From the NCBI GenBank assembly GCA_023898645.1, contig CP060232.1, positions 1,102,347-1,134,346 on the forward strand: a stretch of 32,000 nt of DNA, read 5' to 3'. Below, piece after piece: positions 1,782 through 7,425 of the stretch (its first letter is position 1; each line of letters opens with the position of its first letter). The stretch comes from Candidatus Saccharimonadota bacterium (GTDB lineage Bacteria > Patescibacteriota > Saccharimonadia > Saccharimonadales > Saccharimonadaceae). Made by a program: the position numbers and the translations under genes. Below the pieces are notes generated by a model. That model was not told the DNA's origin. It ran no database searches and saw only the letters and a list, made by a program, of their open reading frames with translations.

Positions 1782-2204
1782 ATGAAGACAAAGGTTTTCT
1801 TGGGAGTACCAATCATTGCTACTATTTTGGTGGCTAGCTTAGTATTTACCCAAGATACTCATGCAGTTAGCCTCAGTATATCTGCCGGCGCCAGTGCTGC
1901 AAAGGGTACGGATCAAGCAGCTAATTTATTCGGTCAGACAGGTATGTTTCGTACTATAACCAACGTACTGCTATATCTCATTGGTGCCATAAGCGTCATT
2001 ATGCTTATCATAGGTGGACTACGATACGTTGTGTCTGGTGGAGACAGTACTGCCGTACAAAATGCGAAAAATACGATTCTTTACGCCATTGTCGGTATCG
2101 TCGTTGCAATTTTGGCATATGCTATCGTCAGTTTTGTTATTTCATCGTTCACAGGAGTAGGTGGCGGAGCTGGTGGTGGTGGAGTTGCGCCGACTAATAC
2201 GTAA
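1782..2204 (+). CDS. VirB2/TrbC-like T4SS pilin paralog (class A)
   Basis: I prefer the start at MKTKVFLGVPIIATILVASLVFTQDTHA (signal peptide); the track ORF begins upstream at 1731. The core FRTITNVLLYLIGAISVIMLIIGGLRYVVSGGDSTAVQNAKNTILYAIVGIVVAILAYAIVSFV forms a two-helix hairpin with a short basic loop, as in TrbC/VirB2 pilins. It has a Gly-rich C-terminal tail and is about 91 percent identical over the core to the gene at 3788..4222. Confidence 0.75.
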   Translation: MKTKVFLGVPIIATILVASLVFTQDTHAVSLSISAGASAAKGTDQAANLFGQTGMFRTITNVLLYLIGAISVIMLIIGGLRYVVSGGDSTAVQNAKNTILYAIVGIVVAILAYAIVSFVISSFTGVGGGAGGGGVAPTNT

Positions 2205-2320
2205 TTATTTAAGTAATGTATGTAAACTTTTCCAGCATTTCGCTACACTGCGCCGAAAACTCATAGTTGCATCGGCTAAAGCCGCTGCCCGCAAGCTCTA
2301 ATCAAGCCCGAACAGACAAG

Positions 2321-2352
2321 AAAATAGACCAGGCATTTGCCTGGTCTATTTT
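2321..2352. terminator. Bidirectional intrinsic terminator (pilin gene on +, tRNA-Ser on -)
   Basis: Perfect hairpin aaaatagaccagg-catttg-cctggtctatttt with an A-run on one side and a T-run on the other. It directly abuts the 3' end of the tRNA at 2354. Confidence 0.75.
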
Positions 2353-2353
2353 C

Positions 2354-2442
2354 TTGGCGGAGAGGGCGAGATTCGAACTCGCGGTACCTTTCGGCACGCC
2401 GGTTTTCAAGACCGGTACCATCAACCACTCGGTCACCTCTCC
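2354..2442 (-). tRNA. tRNA-Ser (anticodon UGA)
   Basis: The minus strand reads GGAGAGG TG ACCGAGTGGTTGATGGT A CCGGT-CTTGAAA-ACCGG CGTGCCGAAAGGTACC GCGAGTTCGAATCTCGC CCTCTCC G CCA. It folds as a cloverleaf with a long variable arm, anticodon TGA and an encoded CCA. Confidence 0.9.
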
Positions 2443-2484
2443 TTGTTAAAATGTGCTTCAGCAATAATAGCAGATTTACCCCTG

Positions 2485-5100: not shown

Positions 5101-5397
5101 TTATTTTGCGACTTGCTGCAATATGAATTGTGTTATACCGGCCGCCATGATGACCACAATTAAACCAACGACAGCATAGGTGATAGTGTTCTTTGCTGCC
5201 TGGATCTGACTACTGTCACCGTTGGCACCTACATAGCGAACACCTCCGATGATAATAGCAAGTACCGCAACAATGCCTGCAATGAAATAAACGACGCCCA
5301 GTAAGTTACCAACCGTAGTACCTGTAATACTAGTAGGGGCACCCTGAAGGTTCAAATCTTCTTTTGAAATCTTAATTGTGTTGTTTGAAGTTGCCAT
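5101..5397 (-). CDS. VirB2/TrbC-like T4SS pilin paralog without an obvious signal peptide
   Basis: 98 aa. The hydrophilic N-terminus MATSNNTIKISKEDLNLQGAP is followed by the core LLGVVYFIAGIVAVLAIIIGGVRYVGANGDSSQIQAAKNTITYAVVGLIVVIMAAGITQFI. The start overlaps the upstream stop (TAATG at 5395..5399). Confidence 0.7.
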   Translation of the reverse strand: MATSNNTIKISKEDLNLQGAPTSITGTTVGNLLGVVYFIAGIVAVLAIIIGGVRYVGANGDSSQIQAAKNTITYAVVGLIVVIMAAGITQFILQQVAK

Positions 5398-5864
5398 TAT
5401 TTGATACTCCCAGCAATAAATTGAACAATGGCAATCGCCATAATTGAAATAACCAGACCAATGATAGCATTTTGGATGGTTTTGCGAGCAGCAACAGTGC
5501 CGCTACTGTTGTCACCCTGTGTCATATATTTAAACCCTCCCCATATAATGAATATGAGTGATGCGTAACCAACGACGTAAAGTAACATATCTACAATGTT
5601 CATGGCGATAATCGTCAGCCATGTGCCAAACCTTTTACCAGTGTCGCCACTACCAACCTCATTGGGTGATTTTATACTTCCGTCACTTTTACATAGTCCA
5701 TCGTACCAATGGGGGAAAATAGTGATACTTCCGCCACACGGATTAGAGCCGCCCGCAGAACTTGCGACGGTAGGCGCCGCATTAACGTATGACACCGGTA
5801 GTAGAGTAAATGCCGCAAGACTTATGAAAGTAATAGCAATTTTATATCTTATATTTCGTAACAT
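5397..5864 (-). CDS. VirB2/TrbC-like T4SS pilin paralog (divergent)
   Basis: Signal peptide MLRNIRYKIAITFISLAAFTLLPVSYVNA, an ectodomain of about 50 aa with two Cys, then the core NIVDMLLYVVGYASLIFIIWGGFKYMTQGDNSSGTVAARKTIQNAIIGLVISIMAIAIVQFI. Confidence 0.7.
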   Translation of the reverse strand: MLRNIRYKIAITFISLAAFTLLPVSYVNAAPTVASSAGGSNPCGGSITIFPHWYDGLCKSDGSIKSPNEVGSGDTGKRFGTWLTIIAMNIVDMLLYVVGYASLIFIIWGGFKYMTQGDNSSGTVAARKTIQNAIIGLVISIMAIAIVQFIAGSIK

Positions 5865-5871
5865 GTCGCAT

Positions 5872-6240
5872 CTATCCTATCACGCCACCAGGTACCAGCC
5901 AATTGATAATTGCAATGGTAAAACCATAAAGTAACAGACCAATGACAATATTTCGAATGATTGTTTTTGACTGATCTAGCTGGGATTGATTGTCGCGAGC
6001 AGACGCATAGAGAATTGCAGCATACGCCAAACCGCCAGTCGCCACCACTCCGATGAGTATAGTTAGTACGTTTGTCGCTATTTTTATCAAAGCACCAATT
6101 GTACCTATACCAGTTTTATCGCTACAGGAAATCAATTGAGTTTTAGTAGTACCACATGAACCTGCAGCGTATACAGGTGCAGCACTAACACCAAGCAGGA
6201 CGGCAAAAAGCGCAATGGTGATTTTTATTTTTTTCATCAT
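5872..6240 (-). CDS. VirB2/TrbC-like T4SS pilin paralog (class B, INWLVPGGVI C-terminus)
   Basis: Signal peptide MMKKIKITIALFAVLLGVSAAPVYA and a C-x9-C loop (SCGTTKTQLISCSD). The core is ATNVLTILIGVVATGGLAYAAILYASARDNQSQLDQSKTIIRNIVIGLLLYGFTIAIINWLVPGGVIG. Confidence 0.7.
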   Translation of the reverse strand: MMKKIKITIALFAVLLGVSAAPVYAAGSCGTTKTQLISCSDKTGIGTIGALIKIATNVLTILIGVVATGGLAYAAILYASARDNQSQLDQSKTIIRNIVIGLLLYGFTIAIINWLVPGGVIG

Positions 6241-6249
6241 ATCTTGGCG

Positions 6250-7425
6250 CTATTTTATCACGCCTCCGGGTACTAGCCAATTGATGATAGCAATCATAAA
6301 TCCATACACAAATAAACCTATCACGATATCGCGAATCCGCTTCCGTGCGTTTGATACGGCTCCTTGGTCGTCTTGAGCCTGTGCGTACTGAATTGACTCC
6401 CACACTATACCGCCGACAGCCCCTATACCAACCAGTATCGAAAGTGCCTGCACGACATACTGAAGCACCGTACTAAGTACCTCTCCGCCCCTAGCATTTG
6501 TGTCGCAGTTTATAAGATTAGTCTTTGCTTGGCCACATCCGCCTTTAACCGTAGAGGTTGTCGTACCTGGACCGCCAGCATCATTAACACTTGAACCGTC
6601 TGGGCAATTACCGTTTGCATCCGCCGTGCTGCCATCCTTACACTTAGGAGGCGTGGGTGGCGGCGGCAATGTACACTTATTATTTACCCATGTACCTCCG
6701 GCAGCAGAGCATTCATTTGGCGACTTCGCCTTCGTTGCCATACATTGCTGCAGTGTATCGTTGGTAATTTTTGTTCCCGTACCACCATTCTGGTCATAAC
6801 ACTCATTAATCGAGTTATCGATGTTTGTCTCGCACTGCTTTATCTGATTAACATCACTAAGATTAGCGTTGTTACAGGCGCTCGCCACATAGCTATCTAT
6901 GCGATCCTGTTTAGTCTTCGAGTTCGTATTGTAGTCTTGGCCCCCGACCGCTGCGTTACGCTGGTCAATGGCGTTGTCTATGCCACACCCAGACCCCAAG
7001 GTAACTAGCCACAAATCCGTTGGCCCTGAACCATCCGCACCAACATTACCGTTATTACACGTTGTTGCAAACGCTAAAACATCTTTGTCATTACACGCGG
7101 TAGTGTCTATTTCATTGGTATAACAAGATACAAGTGCGTTCGAACAGTTACCCTCTTCAGTACCTGGTACATAAGAAATGGAGCTAAGGCCACCTATCTG
7201 TGCCGTGTTTGCACACTGCCTAACCGCAGCAAGACAGTCACTAGCCTTTATGTATTGCGATACCGACTTGCAGTTACCGCTTACACATGTACCATCATCC
7301 TTTGAGCCAGAGCAAGACGCCTGCGCTGCGTCCTCATACACAAATGAAAAAGAAAATGATGCGGCGATTATACTGACAATTACGAGTAGTTTTTTCATGA
7401 ACAATGTTATTCTCTTAATATTCAT
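6250..7425 (-). CDS. Cysteine-rich ectodomain fused to a class-B VirB2/TrbC-like pilin module (candidate adhesin or tip pilin), first gene of the array
   Basis: 391 aa with a signal peptide ending AAQA (alternative start at 7398, MKKLLV). A secreted region of about 260 aa holds about 20 Cys and a PPPPTPP linker. Next comes the C-x9-C loop GGCGQAKTNLINCDTN. The pilin core follows: VLQYVVQALSILVGIGAVGGIVWESIQYAQAQDDQGAVSNARKRIRDIVIGLFVYGFMIAIINWLVPGGVIK, colinear with 5872..6240. Confidence 0.7.
   Translation of the reverse strand: MNIKRITLFMKKLLVIVSIIAASFSFSFVYEDAAQASCSGSKDDGTCVSGNCKSVSQYIKASDCLAAVRQCANTAQIGGLSSISYVPGTEEGNCSNALVSCYTNEIDTTACNDKDVLAFATTCNNGNVGADGSGPTDLWLVTLGSGCGIDNAIDQRNAAVGGQDYNTNSKTKQDRIDSYVASACNNANLSDVNQIKQCETNIDNSINECYDQNGGTGTKITNDTLQQCMATKAKSPNECSAAGGTWVNNKCTLPPPPTPPKCKDGSTADANGNCPDGSSVNDAGGPGTTTSTVKGGCGQAKTNLINCDTNARGGEVLSTVLQYVVQALSILVGIGAVGGIVWESIQYAQAQDDQGAVSNARKRIRDIVIGLFVYGFMIAIINWLVPGGVIK

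Follow-up and report, generated by a model that had tools for sequence, protein, structure and literature searches.

Pilin-like genes in the window

The window analysed here is a 32,000-nucleotide (nt) stretch of a Candidatus Saccharimonadota genome (assembly GCA_023898645.1, contig CP060232.1, positions 1,102,347 to 1,134,346), numbered below from its first nucleotide, in which an array of pilin-like genes lies beside a gene cluster for a type IV secretion system (T4SS). Eight open reading frames (ORFs), p1 to p8, encode proteins with a common C-terminal core of about 75 residues that forms a two-helix hairpin; one ORF is on the plus strand, and seven run head to tail on the minus strand. The initial annotation had described these eight as paralogs with a shared hairpin core, and this was borne out by a hidden Markov model (HMM) built from the eight cores, which retrieved p1 to p8 and no other ORF in the 32-kb window. 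All eight ORFs are intact.

The outlying paralog p1 (1782..2204, plus strand) encodes 140 amino acids (aa), with a signal peptide, a Gly-rich C-terminal tail, and no Cys. The array, given here in the order of its transcription on the minus strand, starts with the two members of class B: p8 (6250..7425, 391 aa), in which a Cys-rich helical domain precedes a C-x9-C loop and the hairpin, and p7 (5872..6240, 122 aa), which has the C-x9-C loop and the C-terminus ...INWLVPGGVIG. These are followed by p6 (5397..5864, 155 aa), a divergent class A protein with an IIWGGFKY core and a C-x14-C pair, and by p5 (5101..5397, 98 aa), which lacks a signal peptide and has two hydrophobic segments only. The class A protein p4 (4674..5090, 138 aa) has an exposed Gly-rich segment between a Cys pair, C33 and C57, that is kept among homologues. 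Class A p3 (4280..4660, 126 aa) has a signal peptide and no Cys, and the last gene of the array, p2 (3788..4207, 139 aa), encodes a class A protein that also has no Cys. The start of p8 at 7425 is backed by conserved MxxKQ N-termini in homologues; the NCBI annotation places it at 7398.

The gaps from p8 to p2 were 9, 7, −1 (a TAATG overlap at 5397), 10, 13, and 57 nt, as the tight spacing reported initially had indicated. The last gap becomes 72 nt when p2 is started at 4207 rather than at 4222, the start in the uncorrected call; the former was adopted because of a conserved ribosome-binding site (RBS), GAAAGG, at 4220..4215 and because the gene is called at 139 aa in other assemblies.

Hydropathy analysis gave an N-terminal hydrophobic segment plus two transmembrane (TM) segments in seven of the eight proteins and the two TM segments only in p5. 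Signal peptides were called from hydropathy and from AxA-like cleavage motifs recognised by eye, and the resulting count agrees with the seven proposed initially.

The core identity was 34–85% within p1–p4 and p6, and p5 was 31–44% identical to these; the closest pairs were p1/p2 (85%), p3/p4 (63%), and p7/p8 (46%). Between class A (p1–p6) and class B (p7 and p8), the identity fell to 19–31%, and the C-x9-C loop was present in both p7 and p8, so that the two subclasses recognised initially are real.

Assignment to a T4SS pilin family

The gathering scores were 26.6 bits for Pfam PF18895 (T4SS_pilin) and 27.9 bits for PF04956 (TrbC/VirB2), and the cutoff of NCBIfam NF045849, the Mbov_0395 pilin-like conjugal transfer protein of a Mycoplasma integrative and conjugative element (ICE), was 40 bits. 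PF18895 matched above its gathering score in seven of the eight proteins (p1, 41.6 bits; p2, 39.3; p3, 44.1; p4, 49.3; p5, 43.4; p6, 31.5; and p8, 32.0), and p7 was below it. Despite its 16.1 bits, p7 is placed in the family because of its 46% core identity to p8 and because the class A and class B profiles are homologous (hhalign probability 96.7%, E 3.6e-10). The PF04956 relationship expected by the initial annotation held above threshold for p4 (30.2 bits); p3 (24.3), p5 (18.5), and p7 (12.7) scored below threshold, and the PF04956 search gave no match for p1, p2, p6, or p8.

All eight proteins matched NF045849 at E < 1e-3 (2.3e-4 for p7). The score of p3 (42.0 bits) passed the cutoff, that of p4 (39.9) was 0.1 bit short of it, and the others were 19–36 bits; these matches show relatedness rather than equivalog membership. 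That the closest curated model is that of a Mycoplasma ICE fits a monoderm origin, of the mating-pair formation (MPF) class MPF-FATA.

In single-chain AlphaFold2 predictions, the p4 model ends in a C-terminal helix-loop-helix hairpin with helices at residues 63–96 and 101–136, and the p8 model has a C-terminal hairpin with helices at 305–340 and 345–375.

Membership of the T4SS_pilin family is thus established at the level of sequence, and by the same kind of evidence all eight proteins are classed with PF18895, the Patescibacteria/monoderm counterpart of VirB2. The VirB2/TrbC-like identity first proposed is upheld by PF18895 in seven proteins, NF045849 in eight, the AlphaFold hairpin, and the T4SS cluster nearby.

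A conserved promoter motif within the array

The close gaps and the overlap had led to the proposal that the array is a single transcription unit. However, the array is not one simple transcription unit because a conserved promoter lies before p2. This promoter was found only through a cross-genome comparison of spacers, in which p3-p2-type spacers share CTTAACAAA...TCTG(G/C)TATAA(A/C), corresponding to a −35 element TTAACA, 17 nt, and an extended −10 element TGnTATAA, with the RBS GAAAGG about 7 nt 5′ of the ATG in the aligned last-gene spacers. In the window, the internal sigma-70-type promoter is at 4241..4269 (minus strand; TTAACA, 17 nt, TGgTATAAA), within the p3-p2 spacer and ahead of the RBS of p2. 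A generic promoter scan missed it because, in that scan, the −10 element has to end in T.

A stringent version of the motif had 85 matches in the 2.64 Mb searched and a single match in the window, at 4241..4269. Of the 73 arrays scanned, 46 had it directly before the last gene and before none of the others, and another 3 had it before the second- or third-from-last gene instead. The last-gene spacer was about 50–85 nt long in most genomes and 151 nt in one clade, and the other gaps were at most 25 nt or were overlaps. The internal promoter of p2 is therefore conserved across species and strong, as judged by its match to consensus rather than by a mapped transcription start. Because p2 has its own conserved promoter and occupies the most conserved array position (see below), it is a candidate major pilin, and the protein is likely made in excess. 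We saw no mention of a conserved promoter before the last array gene in the papers that we examined.

At the upstream end of the array, no convincing −35/−10 pair was recognised by eye in the 94-nt region 5′ of p8 (7426..7519, minus strand), and the generic scan found none there. Upstream of this region is a gene for a 322-aa single-TM protein (7520..8488, minus strand), which is kept in this place in the same-species contigs L001–L004. As the stretch between this gene and p8 gave no recognisable promoter, the two may share a transcript with the rest of the array. At the other end, a 20-pair hairpin with T-runs on both sides (3736..3779) forms the terminator that closes both the array and a convergent Hsp20 gene, in agreement with the strong terminator described initially.

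The outlying p1 has a promoter-like site of its own at 1747..1775 (plus strand; TTGACT, 17 nt, TGgTATAGT), with 10 of 12 consensus matches and the TG present. Its mRNA may be leaderless because the ATG is just 6 nt past the −10 element, with no RBS between them (1747..1784). Two tRNA-Ser genes, with GCT and TGA anticodons, flank p1 (1556..1648 and 2355..2442, minus strand), and p1 is separated from the second of these by a perfect hairpin of 15 bp (2320..2353), likely a bidirectional terminator.

Conservation of array order across Saccharibacteria

The core HMM was run on the ORFs of at least 80 related loci (L007–L086), obtained by a scan of species-representative genomes and all from metagenome-assembled genomes (MAGs); contigs L001–L006 are from the same species as the window. 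Almost all of these loci carry the label Saccharibacteria, Saccharimonadales, or Saccharimonadia. The genome of the window itself was not among the matches listed, the best of which had 58% identity. A same-strand array of 6–7 pilin genes was carried by 68 loci.

It was found that the position of a gene in these arrays predicts its best-matching paralog in the window, for p2 in 59, p3 in 41, p4 in 44, p6 in 56, and p7 in 56 of the 68 arrays, and that class B genes come first. Other traits also follow position. The fourth gene from the end, which corresponds to p5, has a median length of 99.5 aa and is usually without a leader, with two hydrophobic segments in 43 of 68 arrays. A Cys pair was present at the third position from the end (p4) in 45 of 68 arrays, and two Cys at the fifth from the end (p6) in 50 of 68; at both positions, exactly two Cys is the usual number. 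Where there is a seventh gene, its product has a median length of 382 aa and up to about 18–22 Cys. An extra copy downstream of the array that best matches p1, usually on the opposite strand, was found in 28 of the 42 loci with at least 6 kb of downstream sequence.

The core identity between genomes at the same position was 41–70%, with p2 the highest (median 70%), and was at or above the median of 37% between paralogs of one genome. The conserved order and the position-specific length, leader, and Cys traits indicate that the paralogs are old and differentiated. The ratio of nonsynonymous to synonymous substitution rates (dN/dS) would be uninformative here, because the same-species contigs are near-identical (proteins of L001–L006 are 100% identical save one truncated ORF, at 99%) and the other genomes, with 40–70% protein identity, are saturated at synonymous sites. 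An identical array was present in six independent metagenome assemblies.

Proteins identical to those of the window also occur in an NCBI MAG record labelled Candidatus Nomurabacteria (locus tags H6797_05860 and H6797_05880); p4 is among them, on a contig of 1.13 Mb. This label looks doubtful because the related loci and the synteny described below all point to Saccharibacteria. The labels of the related loci and the synteny with Southlakia epibionticum place the genome of the window in Patescibacteria, class Saccharimonadia.

Relationship to known systems

In S. epibionticum, each gene of a syntenic six-gene array (SEML1_0014–0019) was reported to be essential and an outlying copy dispensable (Wang 2023, Cell, PMC10633639); in the transposon sequencing (Tn-seq) data of Table S1 of that paper, SEML1_0014–0019 are all scored GD/ES/ES and SEML1_0024 is scored NE. 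In that genome, SEML1_0014–0019 are succeeded by Hsp20, a ComF-type gene, tRNA-Ser, one more gene, and SEML1_0024, a "pilin" gene on the opposite strand (PMC10633639). Read in reverse, the window has the array, Hsp20, a ComF-like gene, tRNA-Ser, and p1, which is the same order.

The likeness extends to the tandem layout of genes with PF18895 with or without PF04956, to a VirB6-like protein on one flank of the array, to the Hsp20, ComF-like, tRNA-Ser, and opposite-strand extra pilin genes on the other, and to a T4SS with a lysozyme, a protein of about 1100 aa, VirB4, a protein of about 290 aa, and PrgI. SEML1_0013, the counterpart of the product of 8570..10639 in the window, was matched to TrbL/VirB6 by structure (PMC10633639). 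The window differs in that its array has seven genes instead of six, the extra one encoding the 391-aa class B protein with a Cys-rich domain, in that the 322-aa gene separates the array from the VirB6-like gene, and in that extra genes are inserted in the T4SS cluster, such as an esterase gene (14629..16824) with no obvious counterpart in the S. epibionticum list. On the basis of synteny and lengths, the seven-gene array is the orthologue of SEML1_0014–0019 plus one extra class B gene, and p1 is, by synteny, the counterpart of the dispensable SEML1_0024. By this orthology, the array of the window would likewise be essential.

A survey of 3,035 genomes with the same two Pfam models found 441 VirB2 arrays of 2–11 genes in Patescibacteria (Quinonero-Coronel 2025, Microb Genom, PMC12102498). 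They were commonest in Saccharimonadia and Microgenomatia, with a within-array identity of 25% on average and 54% at most, and the variety of pilins was proposed to aid adaptation to different hosts (PMC12102498). An array was defined there as at least two PF18895/PF04956 genes in tandem or one non-pilin gene apart, in a genome with VirB4. With its seven tandem genes at 3788..7425 and VirB4 at 23570..25474, the window falls under this definition. The 63% core identity of p3/p4 exceeds the survey maximum of 54%, core and full-length identity being different measures. The survey stresses variability and host adaptation, whereas the present comparison, within Saccharibacteria, shows paralogs that keep their order and traits, and it adds an internal promoter. 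Multi-pilin arrays in Patescibacteria T4SSs, together with the idea of alternative pilins and host range, have thus already been published (PMC12102498, PMC10633639, PMC12857230), and the array of the window, which the initial annotation had presented as unusual, is a further instance of a known arrangement.

The eight proteins resemble VirB2/TrbC/TraA (PF04956) and PrgF of pCF10 in being small, in having two hydrophobic helices that a short basic loop connects and, except for p5, a leader that is cleaved, and in being encoded in a T4SS gene cluster; a 2025 preprint (bioRxiv 10.64898/2025.12.18.695078) reports that Gram-positive conjugative systems have the VirB2-like pilus protein PrgF. In contrast, diderm VirB2 systems have one major pilin each and a diderm envelope with VirB7/9/10, none of which was found here. 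Bartonella Trw, Anaplasma, and Rickettsia also have several divergent VirB2 paralogs beside one T4SS. However, those copies are lineage-specific amplifications thought to serve surface variation, whereas the paralogs of the window are old and positionally conserved, and the S. epibionticum relative needs each array paralog individually.

The large class B protein p8

The p8 protein consists of a signal peptide, a Cys-rich domain of about 270 aa, a disordered linker of about 30 aa, the C-x9-C loop, and the hairpin. It has 20 Cys in total, at least 10 of which are invariant among 18 homologues. The N-terminal domain (residues ~30–300) is predicted to be mostly helical, with an AlphaFold2 predicted local distance difference test (pLDDT) score of 85–92 over most of its length. 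No Pfam family was found for the Cys-rich domain, and a Foldseek search of the Protein Data Bank (PDB) with the p8 model gave nothing below E = 2.2. Long first genes occur mainly among closer relatives, and in other genomes the first class B gene encodes 125–250 aa; the class B N-terminus is therefore a size-variable module, ranging from about 125 to 500 aa across genomes.

The T4SS neighbourhood

The rest of the window is a monoderm-type T4SS cluster, contiguous with the array, in which VirB4 lies 16 kb from the array. On the plus strand, a PrgI/VirB3-like gene (21567..22685; PF12666, 50.2 bits) is followed by a gene for a TrsD-like protein of 294 aa (22686..23570; NF041427 TrsD, E 1.6e-6, sub-threshold) and one for a VirB4-type ATPase (23570..25474; PF19044, 100.9 bits, and AAA_10). 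The 294-aa product also resembles the N-terminal part of Mycoplasma-type VirB4 (E ~1e-6, below cutoff), and because this TrsD/VirB4-N-like ORF directly abuts the ATPase gene upstream, the N-terminal region of VirB4 seems to be a separate gene. Two candidate VirB1-type cell-wall hydrolases are encoded next, a 1069-aa protein with a weakly NlpC/P60-like C-terminus (25493..28702, plus strand) and a 456-aa Phage_lysozyme2 protein (plus strand, within 25493..30536).

Nearer the array is the first of two paralogous multi-TM proteins (8570..10639, plus strand), which is VirB6-like by position and has no Pfam match; it is 35% identical over 349 aa (E 5e-55) to the second, at 17843..20164. Gly-rich repeats (GGEGGAGGLGGVGGEGGAGGLGG...) and lengthy stretches of low complexity occur in the C-terminal half of this first VirB6-like protein (9700..9960, plus strand). 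The cluster also encodes two distantly related proteins of about 1,080 aa (E 1e-12), only one of which has the NlpC/P60-like end. Part of the T4SS machinery (8570..13926; 17843..20164; 25493..28702; all plus strand) thus appears duplicated. Pfam left the 322-aa protein, both VirB6-like proteins, and both ~1,080-aa proteins without a family, and VirB8 and VirB6 were therefore not assigned on sequence evidence. No coupling protein or relaxase domain was found among the window ORFs scanned. A 731-aa exported protein of esterase/lipase type (BD-FAE, Abhydrolase_3; 14629..16824, plus strand), with Thr/Pro- and Gly/Ser-rich linkers, is encoded inside the cluster.

Discussion

The comparative patterns, together with the published essentiality of each S. 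epibionticum array gene, favour non-redundant subunits over an interchangeable repertoire. Of the three functional options raised initially, distinct major and minor subunits are accordingly preferred to a variable stock. On balance, we lean towards a model in which several specialised VirB2-like subunits together build a single wall-spanning structure associated with the T4SS, of which p2 makes up the bulk. In this model, the precursors would be inserted via Sec, and the signal peptide would be cut from seven of the eight. Each mature two-helix hairpin would then sit in the membrane with both ends outside and the short basic loop inside, until extracted by the neighbouring VirB4/VirB6/VirB3 machine into a single wall-spanning pilus or conduit needed for growth on the host bacterium. 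The paralogs would be fixed, non-interchangeable parts: p2, made from its own strong promoter, may provide the bulk subunit, and p3–p6 may be specialised subunits of lower abundance, among which p5, having no signal peptide, is a candidate for a place near the membrane or for the initiating subunit. The class B proteins p7 and p8 would carry a variable, outward-facing module, and the disulfide-rich domain of p8 could contact the host. Filament formation, a hetero-oligomeric composition, and the role of each paralog are thus the parts of this model that we infer. A stricter version, which we offer only tentatively, is a pilus of fixed composition in which 6–7 anciently diverged paralogs occupy defined places, with the separately transcribed p2 as the bulk, p5 as the base or initiator, and class B at the tip. 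The tip would there display a variable, disulfide-rich module for host recognition, of which the p8 domain, whose fold has no relative among solved structures, is an example.

Several observations weigh against this model. A T4SS pilus has not yet been seen in Patescibacteria (PMC12857230). The position of the short gene is noisy, in that p5 and p4 were the best match in 28 and 27 of the 68 arrays, respectively (55 together). Because the operon is tightly coupled, polar effects may account in part for the essential Tn-seq score of each array gene, and the promoter behind the proposed separate expression of p2 is a consensus-level prediction. A Foldseek search of the PDB with the p4 model returned nothing at E ≤ 0.001, and no solved pilin came up when the class A alignment was used as a profile against PDB chain sequences. 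Unrelated helical hairpins made up most of the Foldseek list, in which the best-placed conjugative pilus was the archaeal one of Aeropyrum pernix (8dfu), in third place (E 0.94, probability 0.82, TM-score 0.64 on the target). This list therefore speaks neither for nor against a VirB2 fold; a helical hairpin is too simple to be diagnostic. The PDB profile search returned only MacB and a ubiquinol oxidase subunit, at E > 0.005, and these were rejected as chance TM matches.

The same absence of an observed pilus and of a significant structural match to solved pilins would be expected if the proteins were T4SS components that remain in or near the membrane as channel or wall-stalk parts and form no extracellular filament, a reading to which the two-TM hairpin, as the sole structural feature, also lends itself. 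In VirB/D4 systems, even T4SS mutants that make no pilus need VirB2 for substrate transfer. We nevertheless regard this explanation as unlikely, as a purely membrane-embedded role would leave little room for large exported modules such as the p8 domain, and the homologous PrgF of the Gram-positive plasmid pCF10 reportedly behaves, and can be modelled, as a pilus (bioRxiv 10.64898/2025.12.18.695078).

Somewhat less likely again is a stock of interchangeable pilins, each able to build a pilus alone, whose diversity would serve a broad host range or a varied surface. Such a role has been proposed for the VirB2 copies of Bartonella and Anaplasma and has also been suggested in Patescibacteria (Quinonero-Coronel 2025). 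The exposed N-terminal segments are indeed wholly different among the paralogs, arrays range from 2 to 11 genes across Patescibacteria (PMC12102498), and the class B N-terminal module varies widely in size. However, the order of the paralogs and their position-specific traits are kept across 68 species-level genomes, same-position orthologues are closer than paralogs within a genome, and the essential calls for each S. epibionticum array gene would be unexpected under redundancy. The genes are translationally coupled, and the array proteins would therefore be made together, which also counts against alternative use.

The TM7x array was first labelled a "Sec secreted array" or effector gene cluster, and the "effector" label persists (PMC10768705, PMC12592800). 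Although signal peptides in seven of the eight proteins and this continued usage are compatible with small Sec-secreted effectors delivered to the host, such a function is highly improbable: two strongly hydrophobic helices remain in every member after the signal peptide, pilin-family profiles match, and it is the membrane hairpin that is conserved and not the exposed part. That one paralog is functional and the others are decaying duplicates, an outcome that would have undermined the initial annotation, can be dismissed, since we found no supporting evidence for it, the eight ORFs are intact, the array is identical in six independent metagenome assemblies, and each array position keeps its orthologues in 68 genomes.

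Saccharibacteria, like other Patescibacteria, rely on a host bacterium, and the T4SS is among the few systems shown to be essential for this lifestyle. The window adds one more example of the multi-pilin arrays already published. The conserved order, the position-specific traits, and the dedicated promoter of the last gene argue for a defined multi-part structure, and the comparative results nominate p2 as the major subunit in cultivable relatives. If the fixed-composition model is true, the structure would be a heteropolymeric VirB2-type pilus, the first of its kind, and a pilin fusion, not a VirB5-type protein, would form its tip.

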